IMG/VR virus record: IMGVR_UViG_3300032330_001609
Location: 197,975-214,776 of that record
Direction: 5' to 3' (one strand)
DNA: 16,802 nt
From: a virus
Lineage: Duplodnaviria; Heunggongvirae; Uroviricota; Caudoviricetes
The notes under the pieces are model-generated. The model searched no databases, was not told where the DNA came from, and saw only the letters and a list, made by a program, of their open reading frames with translations. Shown one piece after another: positions 1,255 to 14,004 of the stretch (its first letter is position 1; the number at the start of each line of letters is the position of its first letter). Position numbers and translations under genes: made by a program.

Positions 1255-1287
1255 AAAATAACCCCATCCTAAACGGTGGGGTTTTTT
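1253..1287. terminator. Bidirectional intrinsic terminator
   Basis: A-tract, ACCCCATC-ctaaac-GGTGGGGT stem (one G-U pair), then T-tract, between convergent genes. Confidence 0.75.
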
Positions 1288-3041
1288 GTTCCATAACCTA
1301 TTACGGATTCAATATTTTCTTTTTGTCTTTTTCCTCCGACAAATGTTCCATTAACTTTTTCACCATTGTCAATAACATCATCAACTTCATCAGTGTAGTT
1401 TCCCTTGGCATTTTTTGTTACTTTAACACCATTTTTAATAACCTTATTAATCATTTTGGAACCATTATAATCATCTTGGTAATTATTTTTATACATCCAT
1501 TCTAATGTTGATTTAATATCACCATCCTTGTTAGGTGTTTTTATTTCCTTAACACCATTTTTAACAACATCATCAACTTCTTCTTGAATCCGATAATTGA
1601 AAATACCGGTCTTTTTGTCAACACATCCGGATGGTCTAATTTCCTTAACACCATTCTCAATGACATTTTCACATTGACCATCAAACCCAATAGAAGTGAA
1701 TGTTCCGTTTTCCACTTTTAGTGTTTTTTTAATACCATTCTCAATAACATCATCAATCATTTTTGGGTAACTAGTTGAGTTATTTTCTTTCATCCATTCA
1801 GCGGTTGACGCAATATCACCATTACCGGGTGTCTTTGTTTCTTTAACACCATCTCTAATGACAAGATGTGATTCTAAAATAAGTTCTCTACCACTATTAT
1901 CTAAAATCAGAAGTGCATTCTTTTTTTGTTTTGTTTCTTTTATGCCATTTTCAAGAATATCATCTATGGTACCGGAAAGATGTTCTTCAAATTGTTTTGT
2001 TTCTCTCACATTATTTTTAATATGGTTTGTTTCTTTAATACCATTATCCAAAACTCTATCAATTAGATATTGGTCGGTGATAAAATATTCAGCATTGTTA
2101 CCACAATAATCACTAACTTTTGTTTCTTTAACACCATTTTGTAATGTGTCTTCCATTTTATTATCAAAAAATTTCATTACATCAACGTGGTTGGTTTCCT
2201 TCACACCATTTTCAATTGCGTCATCAACTATCCATTTCTTTGTAACTGTTCTTTCTTGTGTGTGTTTTACACCACTATCAATGATGTCTTCAATTTCACC
2301 TCTTTTCAATAAAGATTTATAATCGGTTTCTTTTATCCCCTTTTCAATTGTATCATCAACATTATTGCATTGGTGCCAACCAATATCGGTGTGTCTCACC
2401 CCATTTTGAATGGTGTTTTCAACATTGGTTATCATTGAAAATGGGTTATCTTGAGTGCGTTTCACACCATTTTGAATAGTATCTTCAACCGACCAAACCG
2501 TTTTCATATGTGCCCCTTTAGTTTTTTTAACACCCTTGTCAATTATTTCTTCAACTTGCCAATCAGTATATTGTGTCATTGGGGAAATATCTCTCACCCC
2601 ATTTTCAATAATATTTTCCGCAGTTAATTTACTACGCAGTTCGGAGGTAATAGTTGCCTTCACACCCTTGTCAATTACTTCTTCACATAAAAATTGGGAT
2701 ATATTAAAATCATCTGATTTTATTTCTTTCACCCCATTTTCAAGAACTTCTACCAAATTATATGATGGTGTTTGAGCGGGAGATGGTATATTTTTAGAAC
2801 CATTGATAATATTATCTTCCACCCATTTGGTGATGTATGATTGATTCTCCACAACATCCAACGAAGTGAACTCAAATATTTGTTTGAAGAAGTTGTAGTT
2901 ATACCACAGGGTTTTTTGTTCGGTTAACTCAATAACCCATTTTTTTGATTCCGTGAATATTAACCAAGTTGAACCATTGTGGGTATAGGTATCCACACCT
3001 TTTATCCAATTGTTAATTAGTGAATGTATTATTTTTTCCAT
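1269..3041 (-). CDS. 590-aa repeat protein: ~73-aa paralog-family N-domain plus ~20 units of (V/I)(E/D)xxIxNG(V/I)KxT with unique linkers
   Basis: Long ORF with a consensus promoter directly upstream. The motif recurs, e.g. VEDTIQNGVKRT, VENTIQNGVRHT, VDDAIENGVKET. Confidence 0.88.
   Translation of the reverse strand: MEKIIHSLINNWIKGVDTYTHNGSTWLIFTESKKWVIELTEQKTLWYNYNFFKQIFEFTSLDVVENQSYITKWVEDNIINGSKNIPSPAQTPSYNLVEVLENGVKEIKSDDFNISQFLCEEVIDKGVKATITSELRSKLTAENIIENGVRDISPMTQYTDWQVEEIIDKGVKKTKGAHMKTVWSVEDTIQNGVKRTQDNPFSMITNVENTIQNGVRHTDIGWHQCNNVDDTIEKGIKETDYKSLLKRGEIEDIIDSGVKHTQERTVTKKWIVDDAIENGVKETNHVDVMKFFDNKMEDTLQNGVKETKVSDYCGNNAEYFITDQYLIDRVLDNGIKETNHIKNNVRETKQFEEHLSGTIDDILENGIKETKQKKNALLILDNSGRELILESHLVIRDGVKETKTPGNGDIASTAEWMKENNSTSYPKMIDDVIENGIKKTLKVENGTFTSIGFDGQCENVIENGVKEIRPSGCVDKKTGIFNYRIQEEVDDVVKNGVKEIKTPNKDGDIKSTLEWMYKNNYQDDYNGSKMINKVIKNGVKVTKNAKGNYTDEVDDVIDNGEKVNGTFVGGKRQKENIESVIGYGTKNPTV
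1272..2822 (-). repeat. Degenerate coding tandem repeat, ~20 units; period about 66 nt in the N-proximal half, longer and irregular distally
   Basis: Linkers after units 1-10 are 10,11,10,10,10,10,9,10,10,12 aa. Later linkers are mostly 16-30 aa. Confidence 0.85.
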
Positions 3042-3045
3042 AGGA

Positions 3046-3077
3046 CAAATATAACAAACGTATTTGACAATCTCAAA
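3046..3077 (-). promoter_or_regulatory. Bacteroidota-type primary sigma promoter for the repeat protein
   Basis: Minus strand TTTG (3077-3074), 20-nt spacer, TATATTTG (3053-3046), matching TTTG-N19-21-TAnnTTTG. Only 4 nt separate it from the ATG at 3041. Confidence 0.7.
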
Positions 3078-3092
3078 TAGTTAACCTATAAT
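3064..3092 (+). promoter_or_regulatory. Canonical sigma70-like promoter
   Basis: TTGACA (3064-3069), 17 nt, TATAAT (3087-3092), upstream of ORF 3121. Confidence 0.55.
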
Positions 3093-3120
3093 TTTATTCC
3101 ATAGTACAAACAATTTTATT

Positions 3121-3531
3121 ATGGTAAAAACAAAAACAATGTCCTTTCTCAAATACAATAAATTTGAGTTCGGAAAACAAGTCGTGAGTCAATTCGTGGT
3201 CTTCGAGTGTAAGTGGCTCTTCTCAATTATCTTTTTCTATTTCCACAAATCAACGGAACCTCAGGACAGATTTCACACCCACGCATTTAATGCTTGGTCG
3301 GTCAAATTATTCGGAGAGTATGACGAACATATTTTGGATGATGAGACTACCGGTGAATATCACATCGTCAGACGTGAAAAAACTTTAATGTATTTTCCCC
3401 GGGATTCCTATCATCGAATTGCGAACAGCAACGGGTGTATGACAATTCTATTTTCCGGACCGTGGAAAAAATATTGGAAGGAATTTGTCAATGGTGAAAT
3501 AATTCACTATACTTGGGGTAGAGAAAAATAA
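3121..3531 (+). CDS. Cupin-fold protein
   Basis: FHTHAF...GEYDE...YHRI metal-binding pattern typical of cupins. Confidence 0.65.
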   Translation: MVKTKTMSFLKYNKFEFGKQVVSQFVVFECKWLFSIIFFYFHKSTEPQDRFHTHAFNAWSVKLFGEYDEHILDDETTGEYHIVRREKTLMYFPRDSYHRIANSNGCMTILFSGPWKKYWKEFVNGEIIHYTWGREK

Positions 3532-3532
3532 A

Positions 3533-3829
3533 ATGGATAAGGTAAAAATATTACGAAGTGTTGTTAAAAAGATTTATCCTGACGCATCATTTGTTGTAAG
3601 AGTTAATAAATTAGGAAAGTTTCAAATAATTCTCAAAGGAGTTAAAACAACTTATTATGAGGTTGAAACTTTTGAGAGAAAGTTGGTTCTAAAAAATGAT
3701 AAGGTAATTGTGATGGATAATTTCCAACCAAACCTTGAGGCGTTCTATCCATTCTTCACTAAAGAAAATTGTGACATAAAATACATTCTGTGGAATGGTA
3801 AGGTCAAAAATTGGTACGGTAATAATTAA
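3533..3829 (+). CDS. Hypothetical protein, 98 aa
   Basis: ORF begins 1 nt after the upstream stop. Confidence 0.7.
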   Translation: MDKVKILRSVVKKIYPDASFVVRVNKLGKFQIILKGVKTTYYEVETFERKLVLKNDKVIVMDNFQPNLEAFYPFFTKENCDIKYILWNGKVKNWYGNN

Positions 3830-3835
3830 TAAAAC

Positions 3836-3847
3836 TATTTATAAATA
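3836..3847. promoter_or_regulatory. TATTTATAAATA palindromic motif, putative phage (late) promoter
   Basis: 12-bp palindrome 8 nt upstream of the tail collar gene; contains the T4-late-like TATAAATA. Confidence 0.45.
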
Positions 3848-3855
3848 AAAAACAT

Positions 3856-4140
3856 ATGGAATACGAGATTGGAACAATAATGCAATTTGCACATAATTGG
3901 GAAACCCGAGGTTGGAAATATTGTGACGGTAGAACATTAATGATTAGTGAATATCCTGAACTTTATGAAGTTATCGGATGTGGGTTTGGTGGTGACTTTA
4001 GAAAAACATTTAACCTACCGGATTTAAGACCAAGAGATACAGATGGGAATTTATTAAGAACTCCTTACGCGGAAAAAATAAATGGGGTACACTATGTACC
4101 ATATCAAATTTGTACCGTTGGAAGAACACCCTTAAAATAA
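3856..4140 (+). CDS. Stand-alone phage tail collar domain protein
   Basis: IGTIMQFA...GWKYCDGRTL.ISEYPELYEVIG..FGGD...FNLPDLR is the tail collar (Collar) signature. Confidence 0.85.
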   Translation: MEYEIGTIMQFAHNWETRGWKYCDGRTLMISEYPELYEVIGCGFGGDFRKTFNLPDLRPRDTDGNLLRTPYAEKINGVHYVPYQICTVGRTPLK

Positions 4141-4643
4141 TGAGATTTCTTTTTTTTATTATATTACTACTTTCATCATTGGGATATGGTCAAACATATC
4201 CCAATATTATTATTGGGGATTCTCAAACTCCATATATTGATTTACATTCACAAAAAATAAAAAAATGTGTTGGACTATGGGAAGGCGGAATAAATGTACC
4301 AGTGTTAATAAAAATGGTTCAAAAACACCCAATTTCACCTGAAGTTAAGAACCTTGTGATATGTATTGGAACTAATGACCGTTATAATGATTTGGGTGTT
4401 GAACGACTTATTAATTTAATTTGTGTTAAGTTTCCCAACTCTAAATTATATGTGGTTCAGGGTTCTTGGGGTTGGGGTGGTATAAAAAAAATAACCTACC
4501 CTAAAGTAAAAAAATACTATCAAAAATTTGAGCGACTTGGGGTTACCGTGATTAAGACACCTATTGGAAAACGAGAACCTCATCAGGATTGTCCGGTCTA
4601 TAAACAGATTGGTAAAGAAATTGATTCGTTGTTATATTTATAG
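4140..4643 (+). CDS. Secreted SGNH/GDSL-like hydrolase
   Basis: Start moved to ATG 4140 (TAATG overlap). Signal peptide MRFLFFIILLLSSLGYG, block I IIGDS, block III IGTND, C-terminal His (EPH). Confidence 0.7.
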   Translation: MRFLFFIILLLSSLGYGQTYPNIIIGDSQTPYIDLHSQKIKKCVGLWEGGINVPVLIKMVQKHPISPEVKNLVICIGTNDRYNDLGVERLINLICVKFPNSKLYVVQGSWGWGGIKKITYPKVKKYYQKFERLGVTVIKTPIGKREPHQDCPVYKQIGKEIDSLLYL

Positions 4644-4645
4644 AT

Positions 4646-5032
4646 ATGAAATTTATAATATCAGAAGATAGAATCTACGATTTAGTGATGAAACATATTA
4701 ACAGTATGTTTGATATTGATAATATTCATTGGTTATACGGTACTGATGATTTTGGTAATGAAGTGGATTATGGAATATCATTCTATGAAGGTGATTATGA
4801 CGATGATGACAATCTATTTAGATGGTATGGTAAAGATTATTTTTATAGTGAAGAAATGTCTCATCATAATCAAAAAATAATTGATGAATGGGCTGAAAAA
4901 TCACCAATGTTGGAATTTGATAATAACGGTAAAAAAGAACAATTAGATGCTCTTTTTGGTGATAAATGGCATCAACCATTTAAGGATTGGTTCCAAAAGA
5001 ATTTTGATTTACCAATTAAAACAATAGAATAG
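4646..5032 (+). CDS. Hypothetical protein, paralog family member
   Basis: Preceded by TATTTATA. N-terminus MKFIISE; ends LFGDKWHQPFKDWFQKNFDLPIKTIE, like 152-520. Confidence 0.78.
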   Translation: MKFIISEDRIYDLVMKHINSMFDIDNIHWLYGTDDFGNEVDYGISFYEGDYDDDDNLFRWYGKDYFYSEEMSHHNQKIIDEWAEKSPMLEFDNNGKKEQLDALFGDKWHQPFKDWFQKNFDLPIKTIE

Positions 5033-5066
5033 TGGAAAATATTTGTCAAAATACCACTTTTAGTGG

Positions 5067-5096
5067 AAAATAATCACCTTAATTGGTGATTTTTTG
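5067..5096. terminator. Bidirectional intrinsic terminator
   Basis: AATCACC-ttaatt-GGTGATT stem with an A-run before and a T-run after, between convergent genes. Confidence 0.7.
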
Positions 5097-5098
5097 TT

Positions 5099-5443
5099 TT
5101 ATAATGGAAAATTATCGTCTTTTTTGGTGTGGACTATCATAACATTAACACCATTGGAGAACCCGAATACCGGTAACCATTTTTTTAATTCACGTCTCAT
5201 ATCCATATGTGATGGTACATTTTTCCAACTTATCATAACTTCAGATGATTTATTGTGTATTATGTCTACCATAACCCAATAATTACCTCTTTGTTTTCTA
5301 ATTGACTCCGGATTCAAATGTTGAATCGGGTTTAATCTAAAAACAATATCATCAGAAAATTGATGTGCAAGTTCCACACCTTGTTTAGATGATAAGAATT
5401 TACCAAACATTTTTAATGATAAGTCAATTTCTTGTTGTGTCAT
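5099..5443 (-). CDS. Hypothetical protein
   Basis: Start moved to ATG 5443 (MTQQEIDL), which removes the overlap with divergent ORF 5472. TATTTAT lies just upstream. Confidence 0.7.
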   Translation of the reverse strand: MTQQEIDLSLKMFGKFLSSKQGVELAHQFSDDIVFRLNPIQHLNPESIRKQRGNYWVMVDIIHNKSSEVMISWKNVPSHMDMRRELKKWLPVFGFSNGVNVMIVHTKKDDNFPL

Positions 5444-5459
5444 AAAGATAAATATTAAG

Positions 5460-5473
5460 ATATTTATAAATAT
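5460..5473. promoter_or_regulatory. 14-bp palindrome ATATTTATAAATAT between divergent genes
   Basis: Perfect palindrome overlapping ATG 5472; identical copy at 15758-15771. Confidence 0.5.
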
Positions 5474-5762
5474 GAGAATATTAATAGTTGAGAGTAGATT
5501 AGTTAACATTGTGTCTAAGTTTATTGGTGAACTTTATGAGTTAAGTATGCCGGGAGGAAATGATACTTATTTTTTAGACAATAATGAAACTGTGGTTTTT
5601 GTTTATGACAATTACTATGAGGAGTTAACGGTTAACACCGAAGTCATCCATAATGTTTCATCTCAATTAGGAATCCCGTATAAAGATTTGAAACCTATTC
5701 TAAAGGAAGTGGGTAAGATTCTTACCGGAAAAAACACTTCTGAACTTGGATTTTTTAATTAA
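5472..5762 (+). CDS. Hypothetical protein, possible distant paralog family member
   Basis: N-terminus MRILIVES; 96-aa ORF directly after the motif. Confidence 0.72.
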   Translation: MRILIVESRLVNIVSKFIGELYELSMPGGNDTYFLDNNETVVFVYDNYYEELTVNTEVIHNVSSQLGIPYKDLKPILKEVGKILTGKNTSELGFFN

Positions 5763-5768
5763 CTTATT

Positions 5769-5996
5769 ATGAAAAAATTTTTATTACTTTTAATGTTGGT
5801 CTTATTAACTTCTTGTGAAGGTTATCAAGCTGTTGTATATTCTTACGGTATTCGTCAACGTCCTGAACCAAGACCAAAACCAAGACGTGTGTATCATTAT
5901 TATACACCGTACACTTATAATCCGGTTGTAACACCGGTATATGTTTACCCATCAAATCATCATCATCATTTTAATCACGGAGGTGGTAGAAGATAA
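5769..5996 (+). CDS. Small putative lipoprotein, Pro/Tyr/His-rich
   Basis: MKK, hydrophobic stretch, LTSC lipobox. Confidence 0.65.
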   Translation: MKKFLLLLMLVLLTSCEGYQAVVYSYGIRQRPEPRPKPRRVYHYYTPYTYNPVVTPVYVYPSNHHHHFNHGGGRR

Positions 5997-6030
5997 TTTG
6001 AATTTTGCATTTTTATAGATATTTATAATT

Positions 6031-6056
6031 ACTAGAGCCTAGTTTACTAGTCTAGT
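6031..6056. other. CTAG-rich imperfect palindrome in intergenic DNA
   Basis: ACTAGA-gc-CTAGT-tt-ACTAG-TCTAGT; a fifth CTAG at 6079. Confidence 0.6.
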
Positions 6057-6117
6057 TTTTATATATTATTTATTATTACTAGAATTATTTTATTTATAAA
6101 ATATCAAGACCCAAATT

Positions 6118-6140
6118 CCCTCTAATTCAGAGGGTTTTTT
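6118..6140 (+). terminator. Intrinsic terminator
   Basis: CCCTCT-aattc-AGAGGG followed by TTTTTT. Confidence 0.7.
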
Positions 6141-6744
6141 ATTTGAACAAAATTCCACCTTCAAATAAATCTTGAAAACAATATCTGATAATATTAGAGT
6201 TATTTTGGTACAACGGTTTTAATTGGTTGAACTCATCAATAATATTAGGTTTTACTCGGGACCATATATCGAAGTAGATAAAATCAAAATTTTCATTTGT
6301 AATTTTTTCGTGGTAAGTGAAAGCATCTCCAATAACAATGTTAACCTTGTTATTAATATCGTATTTTTTAATGTATGGTGATATGTTATTATATATCTCA
6401 ATATTATTTTCTACAATCGTTATTGATGTTATTGAATCATCATCTAATAATGGAAAGATTATATAACCAATACCCAATCCAAAAGTAAGTATTTTACCCG
6501 ACACATTTTCTAAAAAGAATTGATTAGTGTGTTCTACTAAAATACCACTGTCCATAACACATAATCTCTCATTAAACTTATACAAAGATACTGATGGGTA
6601 TTCGTAGTCATCTGAAAGATTTAATCCGTAGAAATTCATTATTTCGGGTGTTAAATCGTTTTGTTTTATATCGTGTACTAAAGTGTAATCTCCGAATAAA
6701 AGTTTTTCCGGATAAATTGTTTCAAGTCTTATGTAGTTTCTCAT
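6139..6744 (-). CDS. Class I SAM-dependent methyltransferase-like protein (spermidine-synthase-like Rossmann motifs)
   Basis: KILTFGLGIGY (motif I), ITIVEN, IVIGDAF, FDFIYFDIW. Confidence 0.75.
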   Translation of the reverse strand: MRNYIRLETIYPEKLLFGDYTLVHDIKQNDLTPEIMNFYGLNLSDDYEYPSVSLYKFNERLCVMDSGILVEHTNQFFLENVSGKILTFGLGIGYIIFPLLDDDSITSITIVENNIEIYNNISPYIKKYDINNKVNIVIGDAFTYHEKITNENFDFIYFDIWSRVKPNIIDEFNQLKPLYQNNSNIIRYCFQDLFEGGILFK

Positions 6745-6758
6745 AATATTAAATAGAT

Positions 6759-6792
6759 AAAACCCCCAAGATTAGTTGGGGGTTTATTTTTT
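6759..6792. terminator. Bidirectional intrinsic terminator
   Basis: AAACCCCCAA-gattag-TTGGGGGTTT stem with flanking A and T runs. Confidence 0.75.
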
Positions 6793-6859
6793 ACATCAAG
6801 ATGTTGTCAGAGTTGTTAGCCGGTAAGTAACCAAATAGCCAATTTAAGATTTTCTTCAT
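6791..6859 (-). CDS. Possible 22-aa micro-protein
   Basis: MKKILNWLFGYLPANNSDNILM* exactly fills the gap between ORF 6864 and the terminator. Confidence 0.4.
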   Translation of the reverse strand: MKKILNWLFGYLPANNSDNILM

Positions 6860-6863
6860 AATT

Positions 6864-7196
6864 TTATTTTTTGAATTTTTCACCATTAACCTTCACCCAT
6901 TCCAAATCACCACTTAAAATTAACACATCACTATATGATGGTATATCATTTGTGTTTTCTTCCGTGTGTTTATCATCATACTCATCACCAATAGCTGAAA
7001 TTACTCTAACAAAATCTGAACCTTCTTCAGTAATTGTAATTTTCCATTCACCATTATATAAAATAGTTCCTTTGGTACCCAATGAAGTTTTGAACTTGAT
7101 AGGTTTTCTTTCGGATGAATAAGCCTCAACCTCATCACTAATTTGTCCGTCAATTTCTATTAAATCATCGGACGCTCCGTAAATTCTTGTAAACAT
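6864..7196 (-). CDS. Conserved phage hypothetical protein
   Basis: N-terminal IYGASDDLIEIDG motif seen in many phage hypothetical proteins; 2-nt gap to clpP. Confidence 0.75.
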   Translation of the reverse strand: MFTRIYGASDDLIEIDGQISDEVEAYSSERKPIKFKTSLGTKGTILYNGEWKITITEEGSDFVRVISAIGDEYDDKHTEENTNDIPSYSDVLILSGDLEWVKVNGEKFKK

Positions 7197-7198
7197 AG

Positions 7199-7933
7199 TT
7201 ATCGTTTTAATATTTCTTTAGCGTAAAACTCATCAAACCCAACCATCATTTCTGTCATAGATTTGTTTGTCTCTAATCCAACGATGTTATCAATTAACCC
7301 AAACGCTTTTGCCTCGTCCGAGTTAAACCATTTATCATTTCTTGACGACTCATACATCTCGTCAAATGATTTTCCACAATTCTCAGCCAAGATTTTAAAT
7401 AACATATAGTTATATTTTTCAGCTTCCAATTGATTGATACGAGTGTCTTGAACGTTTCCTTGTGTTCCGTGAGACACCATATGTGTCATAATCTTTGAAA
7501 AGATTAACGAACTTCTTTTTCCTTTGGCTCCTGAAGATACCAACACTGAACCCATTGATGCACACATTCCAACATTTAATGTTGCAACATCCGGTTTGAT
7601 GTAGTTCATTGTATCTCGGATTCCAAGTCCTGATAAAACACTTCCACCCGGAGTGTCAAGATACATACTGATGTCTTTTTTATCGGTGGTTTCCAAGAAG
7701 ATAAGTTGAGCTTGGATGATTGATGCCATCTGACTCTCAACCGGTCCGGAAACCCAAATAATTCTATCCATCATAAGTCGGGAGAAAATATCAATTTGAG
7801 TTGCTCTCATTTCTCTTTCTTCCAAGATGTATGGTGTCACACCTTCAATATGTTTTTCAAAATAATCTAAGTTAAGTCCGGACACACCTTTCTCACTCAT
7901 TGCGAATTTTCTAAACTCTTTTCCGTAGTTCAT
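7199..7933 (-). CDS. clpP: ATP-dependent Clp protease proteolytic subunit
   Basis: TPYILEE...DIFSRLMMDRII, TPGGSV, CASMG (catalytic Ser), IMTH (His), RND (Asp). N-terminus is Bacteroidota-like. Confidence 0.95.
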   Translation of the reverse strand: MNYGKEFRKFAMSEKGVSGLNLDYFEKHIEGVTPYILEEREMRATQIDIFSRLMMDRIIWVSGPVESQMASIIQAQLIFLETTDKKDISMYLDTPGGSVLSGLGIRDTMNYIKPDVATLNVGMCASMGSVLVSSGAKGKRSSLIFSKIMTHMVSHGTQGNVQDTRINQLEAEKYNYMLFKILAENCGKSFDEMYESSRNDKWFNSDEAKAFGLIDNIVGLETNKSMTEMMVGFDEFYAKEILKR

Positions 7934-7934
7934 A

Positions 7935-8162
7935 TTATTTTTTTTTATTTTTCTTTCTTTTTTTTGATTTCAAAGTTGCGATAGCATCTGAGGTTATATT
8001 AACTAAACCTTCTTCCATACCATATACGTCAACATTGATTTTCACATTAAGGTTTTTATTTTTAAGTTGTTTAACTATTTTACGTTTTAGTTTTGATTTG
8101 ACTTTACTCAAATCTAAATCGACTAATACGTCAAACCCGGTGTTTTGCACATTTTCACTCAT
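7935..8162 (-). CDS. Hypothetical Lys-rich protein
   Basis: Tightly packed operon ORF. Confidence 0.65.
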   Translation of the reverse strand: MSENVQNTGFDVLVDLDLSKVKSKLKRKIVKQLKNKNLNVKINVDVYGMEEGLVNITSDAIATLKSKKRKKNKKK

Positions 8163-8386
8163 TACGCTTTTTGTTTAGATGGAACAATAGTTGATGCTTT
8201 TGCCACGGCAACGTCTTTGGATTTTAATCCTTTCTCAACAAGTTTACCTGATTTATAGATTCGGTAATCAAATGTCATTGAATATCCGTGTTTTTTTGTT
8301 GTGTCAGGTTTTTTTGTTGCTAACACATAAATGTCGTGGTTGTTAACTTTAACGACGTACTTTCCTTTTGAACTTGCTTTTCCCAT
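8162..8386 (-). CDS. Hypothetical basic protein
   Basis: First gene after the promoter; TAATG overlap with the next gene. Confidence 0.72.
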   Translation of the reverse strand: MGKASSKGKYVVKVNNHDIYVLATKKPDTTKKHGYSMTFDYRIYKSGKLVEKGLKSKDVAVAKASTIVPSKQKA

Positions 8387-8420
8387 TTTAATTATTTAAG
8401 GTTATTTTACTTTGATGGTA

Positions 8421-8451
8421 CAAAGATAAATTAAATAATTTAATCTGACAA
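8421..8451 (-). promoter_or_regulatory. Bacteroidota-type promoter of the clpP operon
   Basis: Minus strand TTG (8451-8449), 20 nt, TATCTTTG (8428-8421). Confidence 0.7.
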
Positions 8452-8488
8452 CTTTTAATTAAAAAAAATTTTGTTTATATTTGATTTT

Positions 8489-8779
8489 ATGAGACGAGAA
8501 ATGTTTGAGAAGGTTTTACAGATTATGTTACCCGGTAGTGAAATACTAACATATGAGATATTACCAAGAAACCAATTGAATGAAAATAATGAATGGATAC
8601 CTGATAGTCCTGCAATATTTGTTTCTATCAAATATGTGTCGGATGATAATAATGATATTCGTAGTGGAAGACTTGGTGAAAGATTAAGTGATATGACAGG
8701 TATGGAGGTAATTATTGACGGATGGTTGAATATGAGAAATTATAATAGTAAAATTAAAGTAGATAGTGAAGAAACCTGA
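8489..8779 (+). CDS. Hypothetical protein
   Basis: First ATG at 8489, just after a TATATTTG element (8476-8483). Confidence 0.68.
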   Translation: MRREMFEKVLQIMLPGSEILTYEILPRNQLNENNEWIPDSPAIFVSIKYVSDDNNDIRSGRLGERLSDMTGMEVIIDGWLNMRNYNSKIKVDSEET

Positions 8780-9158
8780 TTTAGTTGTTTGGAATGAAAA
8801 GGATGGTTACGATGCAAAATCAAAGTCGTATCCAACAAGTGCTGGGAGTCAAGGTTTTGATTTACCGAATGTTCCGTTGTTTAGGACTCAATCATCAAAA
8901 AAAATGATGAATGTGTTTAACAGAGAACGACAAGAGATTGTAGAACGGATTGAAAAAATGTATGATGAGTACAACACTTCTATTATGGTGTGGGAATCTA
9001 AAATTTCTTTTGAGCCAATAGTTGGAAAGTCATATTTTTTATATAACTTTGCCGGAGAATTAACATTATCGTTAATAGCGCCCAATGAATGGAAACGAGG
9101 TGATGATTTTGTTGGTGAGTATTTATTAAATTCTGATAACAAATGGATAAAACAGTAA
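8766..9158 (+). CDS. DUF2452-like protein
   Basis: SYPTSAG...SKISFEPIVGKSYFLY...LSLIAPNEW...F.GEY.LNSDNKW resembles the Flavobacteriia DUF2452 pattern (recalled). GTG start. Confidence 0.65.
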   Translation: MKKPDLVVWNEKDGYDAKSKSYPTSAGSQGFDLPNVPLFRTQSSKKMMNVFNRERQEIVERIEKMYDEYNTSIMVWESKISFEPIVGKSYFLYNFAGELTLSLIAPNEWKRGDDFVGEYLLNSDNKWIKQ

Positions 9159-9475
9159 AAGAGTACATATTATGTGCTGCGATTTGGTATAAAGATATAC
9201 CATTAAAAAAAGTAATTGAAGGTGTCCTTCCAAAGAATTGTGATAGAGGATTGGTAGTGTTGGGGCATAGACACGGACAAGCTTTATGGACGATGGGTAG
9301 TTTAACCGGACTACGAAGTGTGACAAATGCTGAAGATGGTGTTGGAGAACACGAACAAGGATTTTTAACAAACACAAATAGATTTGTGGATAGGGAAGAA
9401 GGTGGACGAATTGCATTTGAGGCCGGTCAAACAAAAGATTTAAGAACAACATTATTCTCAGAAGATTTATATTAA
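9143..9475 (+). CDS. Conserved phage hypothetical protein
   Basis: ILCAAIW...GHRH...EQGFLTN.NRFVDREE...GQ...LFSEDLY, a widespread phage family pattern. Confidence 0.8.
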   Translation: MDKTVKEYILCAAIWYKDIPLKKVIEGVLPKNCDRGLVVLGHRHGQALWTMGSLTGLRSVTNAEDGVGEHEQGFLTNTNRFVDREEGGRIAFEAGQTKDLRTTLFSEDLY

Positions 9476-9479
9476 GAGT

Positions 9480-9698
9480 ATGTGTAAGAAACCTTGTAAA
9501 GAATGTCCCTGGATAGTTAGGAATCATTTTAATGATATGATTATCGGACATTCGATGAAACACGACAAGTCCCACAATTGTCATATGATACCTCCGGAGA
9601 AAAGAGGTGGTCTGTGGGAAACAAAAGAAGAAACAAAATGTATTGGTAGACAACAATTTGAAAAACAAAAAGAATATGAAAGCAACATTATCGTATAA
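9480..9698 (+). CDS. Small Cys/His-rich putative zinc-binding protein
   Basis: PCKECPW...NCH...KCIG spacing. Confidence 0.65.
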   Translation: MCKKPCKECPWIVRNHFNDMIIGHSMKHDKSHNCHMIPPEKRGGLWETKEETKCIGRQQFEKQKEYESNIIV

Positions 9699-9927
9699 CT
9701 TAAACGACCCGGATGACAGAATGGCTCACTTGAGAGCGGTTAAATCTTTGGATATGGCATCGGCCTTATTTGAAATTACAAGAAATTTGAAAAGACGAAT
9801 TGAAAACCGATTTGAAAACGTTGATAACTCAAATAATGATGTGTTTGACGGAATTCAAGAAGTTTTTGAAGGGATTTACGAGATATTGCAAGATAATAGT
9901 ATAGACATTGACGAATTAATTAATTAA
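9676..9927 (+). CDS. Conserved phage hypothetical protein
   Basis: Start moved to ATG 9676 (MKATLSYNLNDPDD...). Confidence 0.75.
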   Translation: MKATLSYNLNDPDDRMAHLRAVKSLDMASALFEITRNLKRRIENRFENVDNSNNDVFDGIQEVFEGIYEILQDNSIDIDELIN

Positions 9928-9930
9928 GAA

Positions 9931-10134
9931 ATGGAACAAGCAGAATTAGAATTTATGTTCTTTATGAGAGGAACATCCGGGTCGTTTATGACAAACTTAT
10001 TTAAGACCATTATGAGTGCTGATATACAAAATCAGATGAAATTATCATTAGGTTTTCCTAATGAGGTAGAAGTGGTTCGTAGATATAGAAATGAAGATGG
10101 GTATTGGCAAAAATTACAAGAAAAAATAAAATGA
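9931..10134 (+). CDS. Hypothetical protein
   Basis: Operon-packed ORF; GSFMTNLFKTI..AD..N..KL..GFP.EV pattern. Confidence 0.72.
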   Translation: MEQAELEFMFFMRGTSGSFMTNLFKTIMSADIQNQMKLSLGFPNEVEVVRRYRNEDGYWQKLQEKIK

Positions 10135-10580
10135 AAAAGTTAATTTTATTATTATGTTTCGTGTTAACATCGTGTTATGTTCCGGAACTACGTGAAGGTC
10201 CTATTAGTAATACGGACCCTATTATTGTTACACCACCCGGGAATGGGGGTACAATTACAACCCCAACATTAGTTGGTCAAACTTGGCGTATATTTTATTA
10301 CCGAGTTGGGTCAACTAGTCAGGTAATGATGACCAACGATACATTAGTATTCTTAACCTCATCAACATATAAATTTAATGGTTATCAATCAACATATCAC
10401 TTAACACCAACCGGTTCCGGATATAATTTAAGTTTATATGAAACACCTTGGGGTAATTTAAGTGGTTCAATATTATCAAACAATTTAACTCAAGGTCAGA
10501 TATTGGGAACCAAGTTTGTGGACATCTCAACCGGGTCATCAAATACCACTGAGTATTACTTGTGGATGAATAAAATATAA
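10131..10580 (+). CDS. Putative lipoprotein, beta-rich (lipocalin-like possible)
   Basis: Start moved to ATG 10131; MKKLILLLCFVLTSC lipobox. Confidence 0.72.
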   Translation: MKKLILLLCFVLTSCYVPELREGPISNTDPIIVTPPGNGGTITTPTLVGQTWRIFYYRVGSTSQVMMTNDTLVFLTSSTYKFNGYQSTYHLTPTGSGYNLSLYETPWGNLSGSILSNNLTQGQILGTKFVDISTGSSNTTEYYLWMNKI

Positions 10581-10585
10581 TTAAG

Positions 10586-11266
10586 ATGATAGATAAATTA
10601 TTTGAAAAGTTTATGACCACCTCAGAAGGTGACCCCGATTTAATTTGGAACAAAGAACAATTTGTTAATATGTTATTGACTGACGATGAGTTCTATCAAA
10701 AGTGGGGTGAAGATTCTTGTGTGGAATTGACTTATGAAGAAAGATATAAATATTGGTTTTCGCATAACTATGAAACAGGAATGGAGTATTATCCTGATAA
10801 TGTTCCCGATTTTGATAATGATTATTATGAACCAACACCAAAAAGAAAAATAAAAGAAATGGAATTAAGTGTAATGGAAAGGTATGTTGCATTCATATGT
10901 AGTGAACTACCAAAAACGAGAAGAGTATTATTAAATCCCCCACCTCCGATGGAAAACGGAGAGTATGGGTATAAGAGATTGAGTAAAATCGGCCCTCACG
11001 TTTATATGATGGTTGATATTGAGATTGTTGAAACATATACTCGTTCGGCTAAGTTGTGTATCAAATTTGAAGATTATCAAATAAACGATATATTTTATAT
11101 GTCCCGTCATAAAGGGCCGGATAAACTATTGGAGGAAATTGATAAGAAAATTGATAAGATTGTTAATAAAACCTTAATTGAGGATGGAAGACAAGAATGG
11201 GTTAGAGAACAATATAAAATCAAGAGTGATAATTTCCCAATTTTCAAAATAAAAACTGAGGAGTAA
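10586..11266 (+). CDS. Hypothetical protein whose N-terminal ~90 aa resembles the inserts of the nearby thymidylate synthase
   Basis: FVNMLLTDDEFYQKWGE and ELTYEER...W...PTPKRKI match thyA inserts 1 and 2. Confidence 0.75.
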   Translation: MIDKLFEKFMTTSEGDPDLIWNKEQFVNMLLTDDEFYQKWGEDSCVELTYEERYKYWFSHNYETGMEYYPDNVPDFDNDYYEPTPKRKIKEMELSVMERYVAFICSELPKTRRVLLNPPPPMENGEYGYKRLSKIGPHVYMMVDIEIVETYTRSAKLCIKFEDYQINDIFYMSRHKGPDKLLEEIDKKIDKIVNKTLIEDGRQEWVREQYKIKSDNFPIFKIKTEE

Positions 11267-11457
11267 TGTATATCATAGTTTGGAGAAATAGTCACCGGGA
11301 ACCATTTATTGATGTGGATTCTCGTCAATTTATGGAATCGTATTATAGTTACGAGGAGGCTAAGGTGGCGGCCGAAGAAATTGTTAAAAACGAAAACGAG
11401 GGTGAACCAAGTCCTTGGTATTTTGATTATAAAATTTATGAAGAGTGTAATGAATAA
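11266..11457 (+). CDS. Small hypothetical protein (Y.SYEEAK motif)
   Basis: TAATG overlap upstream; ATGAATAA overlap downstream. Confidence 0.7.
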   Translation: MYIIVWRNSHREPFIDVDSRQFMESYYSYEEAKVAAEEIVKNENEGEPSPWYFDYKIYEECNE

Positions 11458-11468
11458 ATTAGATAAAC
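11450..11468 (+). repeat. 19-bp direct repeat ATGAATAAATTAGATAAAC, copy 1 (copy 2 at 12766-12784)
   Basis: Exact match at the start codons of the array gene and thyA. Confidence 0.8.
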
Positions 11469-12058
11469 TTTGTATTAAATGGTTGAATGATAATTACAAC
11501 CATATGGAACCATTTATTATAAAAACATACCCTGATTATATTTTTCATATGAAAGATGGGAAATGTATTTTACAATACAATAAAAAAAATGGGTATGTTT
11601 ATGTGAGTTATAGAGAAATTTGGAAGTTTTTTGAATCCTATTTTAGTATGGATAACCAACAAATTAAGGACATCACAAAGATATGGGTGGAGGAACACTA
11701 CAAAATGGGGGTGACAACAACTCTAATTGAATTTCGTCAGATTGTAAATTTGGTGGAGGAACACTACAAAATGGGGGTAACAACAACTTCCTTCAGCACA
11801 ATTAATCTTGCTATACCGGTGGAGGAACACTACAAAATGGGGGTAACAACAACCAGAAGCATCAGCCGAACCATTATAGACCGGGTGGAGGAACACTACA
11901 AAATGGGGGTAACAACAACTGTTGTAAAAGATACCTTTGATGGTATTAAGATAGAGGAACAATACAAAGAAATTCAAACAATCAACAACCAATTAGAATT
12001 TTATTCTGAAAGGGATGTTGAAGAGTTATACAAACAAAACAAATGGATAAAAAATTAG
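11450..12058 (+). CDS. Paralog-family protein with in-frame repeat-spacer array (VEEHYKMGVTTT x4 plus variable decapeptides), 202 aa
   Basis: Start moved to ATG 11450, overlapping the upstream stop. The frame stays open through the whole array. Confidence 0.8.
   Translation: MNKLDKLCIKWLNDNYNHMEPFIIKTYPDYIFHMKDGKCILQYNKKNGYVYVSYREIWKFFESYFSMDNQQIKDITKIWVEEHYKMGVTTTLIEFRQIVNLVEEHYKMGVTTTSFSTINLAIPVEEHYKMGVTTTRSISRTIIDRVEEHYKMGVTTTVVKDTFDGIKIEEQYKEIQTINNQLEFYSERDVEELYKQNKWIKN
11686..11985. CRISPR. Cas-less CRISPR-like mini-array embedded in a CDS: 36-nt repeats, 30-nt spacers
   Basis: GGTGGAGGAACACTACAAAATGGGGGTAACAACAAC at 11686 (one A>G), 11752, 11818 and 11884. A degenerate copy at 11950 matches 16 of its first 19 nt. 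The four spacers are unrelated and exactly 30 nt. The structure is certain; CRISPR function is inferred. Confidence 0.65.
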
Positions 12059-12219
12059 ATATTAGTTGGAAATCTTATTCAAAAACCTTACCTTTGTCCA
12101 AAGAAATCTATTTGGATGTGTTTGGTGAGCCAAAGACCCACGCAGAATGGGCGGATAGTTTCAATAAAATAGGAAGAATAAACAGGTTAATAATAAAACA
12201 CGCAGATGACATACGATGA
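12043..12219 (+). CDS. Small hypothetical protein, 58 aa
   Basis: MDKKLDISWKSYSKTLPLSKEIYLDVFGEPKTHAEWADSFNKIGRINRLIIKHADDIR* fills the apparent gap and overlaps both neighbours. Confidence 0.6.
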   Translation: MDKKLDISWKSYSKTLPLSKEIYLDVFGEPKTHAEWADSFNKIGRINRLIIKHADDIR

Positions 12220-12436
12220 TTTAGAAAAATGGGAAAGTGTCCAATATAGAATGGATGAAGAAGGATTTGATTATTGTTTTGAAAGTTATAGTCGTTGGGA
12301 TGAAATCAAAGATGAAGAGTTCCACCGATTAAGATTGGGTTTCTTACAATCTATGGAAGACCTTAGAAATTATATTGATAAAAAAGTTGATGAAGGTAGA
12401 GGTCAAGAATTAGATGGTGAATTGGATGATGAGTAA
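12206..12436 (+). CDS. Acidic hypothetical protein
   Basis: Operon-packed ORF, 76 aa. Confidence 0.72.
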   Translation: MTYDDLEKWESVQYRMDEEGFDYCFESYSRWDEIKDEEFHRLRLGFLQSMEDLRNYIDKKVDEGRGQELDGELDDE

Positions 12437-12599: not shown

Positions 12600-12773
12600 A
12601 TGGGACTTATAAATAATCTTTATGCTGTGTATGAAAAATCACCGGCACACGGGAGCAAAGAACATAATGTAATCTTGGCTCCTTTCAAAACTAAAGAAGA
12701 AGCAGAACAAAGCAGAATTAAATATGGTTATAACACCGATAATTATTACGTAGATATTTTGAAATATGAATAA
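12600..12773 (+). CDS. Small hypothetical protein, 57 aa (FKTKEEAE motif)
   Basis: MGLINNLYAVYEK...YVDILKYE*; ATGAATAA overlap with thyA. Confidence 0.62.
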   Translation: MGLINNLYAVYEKSPAHGSKEHNVILAPFKTKEEAEQSRIKYGYNTDNYYVDILKYE

Positions 12774-12784
12774 ATTAGATAAAC
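12766..12784 (+). repeat. 19-bp direct repeat, copy 2
   Basis: Identical to 11450-11468. Confidence 0.8.
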
Positions 12785-14004
12785 AATACACAGACTTGCT
12801 CCAAGACATCTTAGATAACGGAGTAACAAAGCAAGACAGAACAGGTACAGGAACAATTTCAGTATTCGGAAGACAAATACGTCACGATATGAAAGATGGC
12901 TTTCCATTACTCACAACTAAGAAGATGCCATTTAAAACAATCGTAACAGAACTACTTTGGTTCTTACGAGGTGACACCAACATTAAGTTTTTGGTTGATA
13001 ATAATTGTCACATTTGGGATGGTGATGCTTATAAGAGATATGAGAATAGTTATGCCGCTTGGGTTGGAAATTCTTCGTGGTCAAATAATGCTGAGCCTTG
13101 GGATATGGAAAACTTTATTCGACTAATAAAAGAAGACGAGAGGTTTTGTTCCATATTTGGTGAGTTAGGTCCAATTTACGGTAAGCAATGGAGAAGTTGG
13201 GATGGTTATCATAATGCAATTGGTGAAGATAATAGATTCATAAAAAATATGAATGGTATAGACCAAATCCAAAATCTAATCAACGACCTTAAAACAAATC
13301 CAGACTCAAGACGATTAATGGTTAATGCTTGGAATGTTGGAGAGCTGGATTCTATGGTCTTGCCACCTTGCCATTATGGATTTCAAGTTTATACAAGAGA
13401 GTTGAGTGATGAGGAAAGATTATCTTGGATGAAACAAAATAAAAGTAATGTTGTTTTACCAATGAGAGACCCTAGTGTTGAGTTTTCTATGGATGAGTTT
13501 TTTAGACCTTATGGTGTACCTAAACGAGCAATCTCTTTAATGTGGAATCAAAGAAGTGTTGATACATTCTTAGGTTTACCATTCAACATCGCATCTTATG
13601 GATTATTATTAGAAATAATTGCAAAAGAAGTTAATATGGTTCCTGAAGAGTTGATTGGAAATTTAGGTGATGTTCATTTATACTCAAACCATATTGAACA
13701 AGCAAAAGAACAGATTGGAAGAGAATATACTCACCAAGAAAGAACAGAATTGTTAAAACAAGCGATGGGTAAAGAAAGATATGATAAAGCAGTTGATGAA
13801 TTGATGCCGTTCGGTGGTGGGTTAAGTAGTGAATATGAATGGTATAAAATACCTCATCATTCAAGAGAACCTTATAAGTTACCAAGATTGAAATTCTCAC
13901 CTTGCCCAATAACCGGAATTGATATTGAGTATCAATCAATAGCTCAATTCCAAATTGAGAATTACGAATCACATCCAACAATTAAAGCACCTTTAAGCAA
14001 TTAA
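12766..14004 (+). CDS. thyA: Thymidylate synthase with three large inserts
   Basis: DRTGTGT, ELLWFL, LGPIYGKQWR, SRR, LPPCH (catalytic Cys), QRSVD, PFNIASY (Asn, dUMP-specific), GDVHLY, HPTIKAPLS. Confidence 0.97.
   Translation: MNKLDKQYTDLLQDILDNGVTKQDRTGTGTISVFGRQIRHDMKDGFPLLTTKKMPFKTIVTELLWFLRGDTNIKFLVDNNCHIWDGDAYKRYENSYAAWVGNSSWSNNAEPWDMENFIRLIKEDERFCSIFGELGPIYGKQWRSWDGYHNAIGEDNRFIKNMNGIDQIQNLINDLKTNPDSRRLMVNAWNVGELDSMVLPPCHYGFQVYTRELSDEERLSWMKQNKSNVVLPMRDPSVEFSMDEFFRPYGVPKRAISLMWNQRSVDTFLGLPFNIASYGLLLEIIAKEVNMVPEELIGNLGDVHLYSNHIEQAKEQIGREYTHQERTELLKQAMGKERYDKAVDELMPFGGGLSSEYEWYKIPHHSREPYKLPRLKFSPCPITGIDIEYQSIAQFQIENYESHPTIKAPLSN

Follow-up and report, generated by a model that had tools for sequence, protein, structure and literature searches.

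Can a phage lengthen one of its own protein genes by the reaction that adds spacers to arrays of short palindromic repeats that are clustered and regularly interspaced (CRISPR)? The question is raised by two genes of a giant lake phage, in a 16,802-nt stretch of DNA (hereafter the window), which forms the final 16.8 kb (positions 197,975 to 214,776) of the 214,776-bp IMG/VR virus record IMGVR_UViG_3300032330_001609 (Caudoviricetes; completeness 73%). Gene B (11450..12058, + strand) encodes a conserved head followed by constant blocks that alternate with variable blocks, and gene A (1269..3041, − strand) has the same architecture in an old and decayed form. A preliminary description of these genes had proposed that an integrase, possibly the host adaptation complex, repeatedly inserts 30-nt foreign fragments next to the head and that stop-free fragments are kept. 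We found that growth of gene B by spacer-type integration is well supported. The 3′ half of gene B is probably a genuine, still-growing CRISPR-type array within a phage protein gene, with the type II-C Cas1-Cas2 of the host as the likeliest writer. To our knowledge, CRISPR adaptation is known only as a means of storing guide sequences in non-coding arrays.

A repeat-spacer array in gene B

The 202-aa open reading frame (ORF) of gene B comprises head, array and tail, and has >260 metagenomic homologs whose lengths step by 22 aa. Its true start is the ATG at 11450 (MNKLDK), as in the homologs, and not the TTG at 11309 of the listed ORF. The conserved head (11450..11686) has 78 codons, of which TGG is the last, and the third base of this TGG is base 1 of the first repeat. 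The 3′ end of the head occupies the place of a CRISPR leader.

The repeat is 36 nt long, GGTGGAGGAACACTACAAAATGGGGGTAACAACAAC. Repeats 2 (11752..11787), 3 (11818..11853) and 4 (11884..11919) are exact copies and repeat 1 (11686..11721) carries one synonymous A>G change, i.e., a single base differs among repeats 1–4, as is typical of the near-identical direct repeats (23–55 nt) of CRISPR arrays. The terminal repeat 5 (11950..11985) is degenerate, and the C-terminal tail behind it (11986..12058) reads as a further decayed unit (NQLEFYSERD, then VEELYK...). The four spacers (11722..11751, 11788..11817, 11854..11883 and 11920..11949) are each exactly 30 nt long and mutually unrelated, giving a period of 66 nt; all these elements lie on the + strand. 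There is no further occurrence of the repeat, and no other pristine array, in the 214-kb record.

Pfam and PHROGs returned nothing for gene A or gene B. The AlphaFold model of the gene B head contains a helix, three strands and two helices, with a predicted local distance difference test (pLDDT) score of 54–75. A fold search with this head gave no match (best Z 4.8, uninformative), and ESM Atlas gave no usable match.

Origin of the spacers

To our search of the window array against 401 Flavobacterium genomes, spacers 1, 2 and 4 gave alignments whose ends coincide with the spacer borders. Spacer 1 is a copy of dnaN, antisense to that gene, and was matched at 28/30 in three genomes (G375, G156 and G262) and at 90–93% in ~30 more. 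Spacer 2 was found at 29/30 in one genome (G316, locus L046) and in a metagenome contig (L036); it comes from a 332-aa Flavobacterium gene of unknown family and is read on the sense strand in another frame. Spacer 4 (VVKDTFDGIK), an old unit common to many alleles, was matched at 27/30 with exact borders in G150, G367 and G344 and copies altronate dehydratase in the host's own frame. Spacer 3 had no match in the 401 genomes or in IMG/VR; variants of its RSISR... peptide occur in many alleles.

Sister alleles gave closer matches. The 24-nt core of spacer 2 of allele L011 matched 17 bacterial genomes, all of them Flavobacterium or Chitinophagaceae, and the full spacer was found at 30/30 in three metagenome-assembled genomes of lake Flavobacterium, two from Lake Mendota. 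Spacers 5 and 4 of the same allele had matches of 90–93% and 88%, respectively. In allele L005, spacer 1 was found exactly (31/31) in many genomes, at least 18 genomes hold an exact copy of spacer 3 (30/30), and spacer 2 was matched at 93%. Allele L009 gave two weaker matches, and no match was obtained in the five best protospacer genomes for L014 and L015, which are old, decayed arrays. The source genes are dnaN, murB, the type III glutamine synthetase gene (glnA), the gene for ribosomal protein S1 (rpsA), an S9 peptidase gene and altronate dehydratase; those copied exactly (30/30 and 31/31) by the sister alleles are glnA, rpsA and the peptidase gene.

Nine spacers could be mapped, three in the host frame, four on the sense strand in another frame, and two antisense. 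Random capture followed by a stop filter would give an in-frame share of ~0.29. The spacers thus reflect capture of DNA and not domain shuffling. No protospacers were found in the phage's own genome, in other phage loci or in GenBank phages, and a search of IMG/VR with three spacers lacking a host match returned only the arrays themselves. As in a CRISPR array, the spacers are copied from other DNA, here from Flavobacterium genes, and the base-exact matches link the phage to a Flavobacterium host.

Alleles differ next to the head

Parsing of the >260 gene B homologs into constant and variable blocks yielded 112 distinct arrays, in which 330 of 385 variable blocks have a length of 10 aa. The share of units unique to one allele falls with distance from the head (units 1 to 5: 48, 39, 16, 11 and 8%), collinearity of shared units holds in 223 of 236 allele pairs, and units in common suffixes number 245 vs. 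93 in common prefixes. The match of the constant block to the consensus declines from 10.9/12 in units 1–2 to 6.3–6.9/12 in units 6–7. Several alleles are nested: P0003 has the units of P0007 and two head-proximal ones in addition, P0046 and P0065 each extend P0048 by a single head-proximal unit (a different one in each), and L014 extends L016 by one unit. The alleles differ by whole 66-nt units, and the populations indicate polarised growth together with a degenerate terminal repeat, as in CRISPR arrays. The gain of 66-nt units beside the head, with distal units shared, had been foreseen in the preliminary description and was borne out for gene B by this comparison.

In lineages with a mutated first repeat, unit 1 is fixed and variation occurs at unit 2, a pattern that appears to resemble ectopic integration at the first intact repeat. 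The heads of gene B alleles are under purifying selection, with a ratio of nonsynonymous to synonymous substitution rates (dN/dS) of 0.06–0.43. The window allele and L005 have a head dS of 0.157, yet they have 0/4 spacers in common.

Unit borders and open frame

The 36-nt repeat consists of one base, eleven codons and two bases, and the unit borders are out of codon phase. The wobble base of the last Thr codon therefore comes from the spacer in every unit, and the G in the final codon of each variable block comes from the repeat. Among variable blocks that precede an intact repeat, the last residue was one without an NNG codon in 6 of 208 cases vs. 67 expected (P = 6e-27). A repeat maintained at the protein level would not impose this constraint, which shows that the borders are set on DNA.

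A scan of IMG/VR by DNA pattern, independent of gene calling, recovered eight distinct arrays with 33 spacers. The coding frame is free of stops in 33/33 spacers, and the other five frames all hold stops. A random Flavobacterium 30-mer is stop-free in the coding frame with a probability of 0.579, giving a joint P of 1.5e-8; the earlier proposal that stop-free fragments are retained is supported for gene B. The spacers are of uniform length, as expected of a CRISPR array (30 nt in 30 of 33, 33 nt in two and 27 nt in one), and none is 29 or 31 nt long. For comparison, 30 of 171 spacers in host II-C arrays are 29 nt and one is 31 nt long, i.e., 18% have one of these two lengths. Selection for read-through is evident from the open frame, from which it does not follow that the peptides are important. 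We infer that the gene B array is translated.

Gene A as a probable decayed relative

Gene A encodes 590 aa. Its head (2823..3041, − strand; pLDDT 64–80) ends in ...ITKW/VED, and its array (1350..2822, − strand) holds 19 constant blocks of the type VEDTIQNGVKET. Units 1–10 are 63–72 nt long, mostly 66 nt, and later units are 84–117 nt long. The blocks share 62% identity at the DNA level (0.62, 0.76 and 0.49 for codon positions 1, 2 and 3), a pattern that points to a translated motif under purifying, protein-level selection; the base preceding each block is no longer constrained.

The preliminary description had assigned one architecture to both genes. The blocks, the units of ~66 nt and the junction TGG GTG GA(A/G) are indeed present in both, and irregularity rises toward the C-terminus in both as described, in gene B as the degenerate fifth repeat and in gene A as the lengthening of units. 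The N-terminal domain, described as one family, has to be reworded as a shared design with a shared junction motif: homology between the two heads was not demonstrable by BLASTP (E 0.95) or by hhalign (probability 2%, only the junction aligned). In the AlphaFold models, which are of moderate confidence, the two heads agree in the order of their elements (helix, 3–4 strands, helix, junction helix).

Variable blocks were likewise described as insertions and not duplicates, which is true of gene B, where they are 30-nt copies of host genes, and does not extend to gene A. The gene A family (>849 proteins) has a shared repertoire of variable blocks of 9–26 aa that are shuffled between alleles, and several of them are diverged homologs of one another. 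A search of gene A against 201 Flavobacterium genomes gave scattered single-genome matches, none aligned to block borders, and no protospacers. Gene A is consistent with an ancient array that has turned into an ordinary modular protein, the evidence for this being its architecture. It would then be an old relative of the gene B design, now maintained by protein-level selection.

Host CRISPR systems and the candidate writer

We detected Cas1 in 34 of 121 sampled Flavobacterium genomes (~28%). In six of the Cas1-positive genomes an array lies beside cas2, with the 36-nt repeat GTTGTGGTTTGATTAAAGATTAGAAAACACGATATT and a period of 66 or 65 nt; the degenerate terminal repeat is on the GTTGT side and a conserved leader adjoins base 36. 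The II-C arrays of different Flavobacterium species (L090–L096; G110, G039, G081, G122, G115 and G015) carry an almost identical 36-nt repeat, and a leader of ~100 nt between array and cas2 is conserved among these loci.

On the opposite strand, the first bases of the phage repeat are GTTGTTGTT, identical at 8/9 positions to the start of the host repeat (GTTGTnGTT). The decayed end of the phage array is on the GTTGT side, and its growing end, by the head, adjoins base 36. Geometry (36 + 30), end motif and polarity of the phage and host II-C arrays therefore agree, and the 36-nt repeat, 30-nt spacer and leader beside base 36 are those of II-C and VI-B arrays alike. There is a precedent for action in trans: the VI-B array of F. 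columnare lacks cas1 and is filled by II-C Cas1-Cas2, although the two repeats are alike mainly in the GTTGT end (Hoikkala et al., 2021, PMC8092290).

From these findings we propose the following course for gene B. At each step one 30-nt spacer and one duplicated 36-nt repeat would be inserted beside the head, the head domain standing in for the leader. The spacers come from the chromosome of the Flavobacterium host, from either of its strands and in any frame, and since the unit is 66 nt the frame is kept automatically. Selection would then remove spacers with a stop or with a length that is not a multiple of three, so that the ORF remains open from head to tail. Type II-C Cas1-Cas2 of the host would act in trans on the phage leader and repeat as look-alikes, as it does on the F. 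columnare VI-B array. Older units would drift, and recombination between repeats would shuffle them. We infer both the enzyme and any benefit to the phage; host Cas1-Cas2 appears to be the most likely, if unproven, writer of the gene B units.

A number of observations weigh against this proposal. Cas1 and Cas2, the adaptation genes, are absent from the phage record that holds the array (73% complete), and Cas1 is also absent from three CheckV-complete relatives of 308–322 kb. The phage repeat is not host-like over its whole length (12/36 positions identical to the II-C repeat); it was not found within 3 mismatches in the 401 Flavobacterium genomes, nor was its core found in 185,579 species genomes. 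No clear protospacer adjacent motif (PAM) was seen beside 11 protospacers, and the F. columnare PAM was not among the flanks; T occupies position 1 in 9/11 and C position +6 in 7/11 (uncorrected P 0.001). The phage junction has weak similarity to host leaders (40–50% vs. a null of 38%; 0.004–0.17 of shuffles reach it). Cas1 is present in only one of the five best protospacer-bearing genomes. Some allele differences are internal, units are sometimes shuffled or reversed in order and duplicates occur, which indicates that recombination also acts. AlphaFold predicts no structure for the arrays of either gene (pLDDT ~30), and the suggestion that the protein displays a library of decapeptides finds no backing in this result. 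Finally, small ORFs overlap both ends of gene B, one at its start (11266..11457, + strand, with ATGAATAA at the start) and one whose ATG lies inside its end (12043..12219, + strand, ...AAATGGATAAAAAATTAG). The upstream ORF, gene B and the downstream ORF may be translationally coupled, so coupling is an alternative reason for the open frame, which could be kept for the overlapping downstream ORF and not for the peptides.

With respect to the earlier suggestion of an integrase or the host adaptation complex, the occurrence in the host genus of II-C arrays with the same geometry and polarity speaks for it; the lack of a phage Cas1, the low overall identity of the repeats and the lack of a clear PAM speak against it.

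No CRISPR array was present within 18 kb of the cas genes in the sole Cas1-positive genome among the five best protospacer holders. Locus L066 (G375:C60:40000-58000) has a cas9-cas1-cas2 operon without a CRISPR array within 18 kb, and long ORFs on both strands at 11011–12309. None of the 171 host II-C spacers targets this phage.

Alternative explanations

An ordinary phage CRISPR array without cas genes could produce guide RNAs directed at the host, with the frame incidental or kept for coupling or for avoiding polarity, and with peptides that have no role. Compact arrays without cas1/cas2 are frequent in huge phages and some of their spacers target the host (PMC7162821), spurious repeat proteins are known to arise when CRISPR arrays are mistranslated (PMC7673337), essential host genes, e.g., dnaN, murB and rpsA, are matched by the spacers here, and the overlapping small ORFs would fit coupling. 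We nevertheless consider a guide array improbable. In all 33 spacers the open frame is precisely that of the head, which is under purifying selection, and none of them has 29 or 31 nt; old units lose DNA identity while keeping the amino-acid motif, and the codon-position pattern of gene A is that of a translated protein. Processing by a host tracrRNA or effector is also doubtful because no host repeat matches that of the phage. The RNA of the repeat is weakly folded and matches no Rfam family, CRISPR-DR included, and the origin of spacers from both strands is a poor fit to RNA targeting.

If spacer-type integration is accepted, the writer of the units might instead be an integrase or recombinase that the phage encodes and that belongs to an unrecognised family. 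The phage repeat is unlike the host repeat except for the end motif, and the II-C-type PAM was not seen; a phage enzyme would also suit the scarcity of Cas1 in the sampled Flavobacterium genomes, the lack of Cas1 in the phage and the very wide distribution of the family (>260 B-type and >849 A-type proteins). No candidate gene, whether integrase or nuclease, was found among the neighbours of A and B, however, and an unrelated enzyme is not expected to copy the 36 + 30 geometry, the GTTGT end and the polarity of host II-C arrays all at once; this writer seems unlikely to us. Far less probable still is a tandem-repeat protein shaped only by duplication, unequal crossing-over, gene conversion among constant blocks and fast divergence of linkers, with no insertion of foreign DNA. 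Unit shuffling, duplicates and diverged sister blocks do exist (wlkwitlmer and skkwkeilmer; the ktpg... modules of gene A) and gene A has no protospacers. Against this stand the exact 30- and 31-nt copies of host genes in gene B alleles, the unit borders that are set on DNA and out of codon phase, and the complete spacer turnover between the window allele and L005 at a head dS of 0.157. Homology of whole units, linkers included, is absent from gene B and partly present in gene A; an origin by duplication only is contradicted for gene B and still stands for gene A. A diversity-generating retroelement (DGR) was rejected as well, for no RVT_1 domain is present and the variable blocks are host copies.

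Relation to known systems

Huge phages carry compact CRISPR arrays without cas1/cas2, often without effectors, and some of these are host-targeting (Al-Shayeb et al., 2020, PMC7162821). The gene B case resembles them in being a short array in a jumbo phage without adaptation genes and with spacers from the host chromosome. It differs from them in its in-frame fusion to a conserved head, its stop-free frame, a repeat without a match among host repeats, the lack of an effector, and the presence of a 590-aa paralog of the same design under protein-level selection. The F. columnare VI-B array shares with gene B the 36-nt repeat, the 30-nt spacers, the lack of its own cas1/cas2, a likeness to II-C that is limited to the leader-distal GTTGT, and growth beside base 36. 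Unlike the VI-B array, gene B is on a phage, has no cas13b, is protein-coding, and takes its spacers from the host and not from phage, and no shared PAM was seen. In comparison with Flavobacterium II-C arrays, which share its layout, repeat start, side of degeneration and side of growth, the phage array differs in most repeat positions and in spacer length (29, 30 or 31 nt in II-C; 27, 30 or 33 nt in the phage); II-C arrays are closed in all frames only by chance, whereas the phage array is open.

Spurious proteins from mistranslated CRISPR arrays (PMC7673337) also show spaced repeats that derive from a repeat-spacer array. In gene B, by contrast, the openness of the frame far exceeds chance, and this frame follows on from a head under purifying selection and extends to a conserved end. 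DGRs and RNA anti-CRISPRs (Racrs; PMC10651486) are comparable in that the former create local hypervariation on phages and the latter mimic CRISPR repeats. Gene B differs from a DGR in having no reverse transcriptase and in variable parts that are host copies instead of mutated template copies, and from a Racr in that its repeat mimics no known host repeat. A 2026 survey of boreal Flavobacterium jumbophages with a standard finder reported no CRISPR arrays (PMC13573597). Compact cas-less arrays of huge phages (PMC7162821) and mistranslated arrays as an artefact (PMC7673337) are thus already known. In the literature searched we found no description of an in-frame fusion between an array and a protein gene in which the frame stays open.

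An adaptation-like reaction appears to write host DNA into a viral ORF, and selection keeps the product readable. The array might be tolerated as the by-product of a decoy for host adaptation, it might supply guides directed at the host, or it might serve real peptide diversification. We put forward only tentatively the idea that spacer acquisition is used or tolerated to write new peptide cassettes into phage proteins, with arrays maturing in the course of time into large modular proteins like gene A. On this tentative reading, a translated gene would receive random 30-nt fragments of host DNA from either host Cas1-Cas2 or a phage enzyme. Should the array be translated, it would be a naturally occurring means of extending a protein with random decapeptide cassettes, and were the peptide-cassette idea correct, proteins could be invented and diversified by a route other than duplication, DGRs or recombination; maturation of such arrays into long modular proteins is suggested by gene A. 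Without translation, the array would still be an unusual gene-fused, host-DNA-capturing array without cas genes, which could act as an adaptation decoy or as a source of host-directed guides. Either way, uncultured jumbo phages are tied to Flavobacterium hosts, and one defined junction offers a direct experimental handle.

Other features of the window

Genes neighbouring A and B encode a ClpP-like protease, a methyltransferase, a cupin and a thymidylate synthase. The ClpP-family protease (7199..7933, − strand) matches phage head maturation protease families. The thymidylate synthase (412 aa, 12766..14004, + strand) was matched by the Pfam model over residues 6–330 vs. 235 profile positions, i.e., with long insertions. 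It begins MNKLDK, as gene B does, and the repeat motif does not occur in it. DNA similarity to cultured phages is confined to a fragment of thymidylate synthase from Flavobacterium phages. A gene of the window is present in the protein database on a 332-kb contig as well. The window contains neither a tRNA nor an Rfam family. Gene A and the cupin-like gene at 3121 are divergent, and the intergenic DNA between them holds two copies of a 20-nt direct repeat (3090–3133). A 14-mer outside the window occurs three times at 63-nt spacing (G000:C1:15121).

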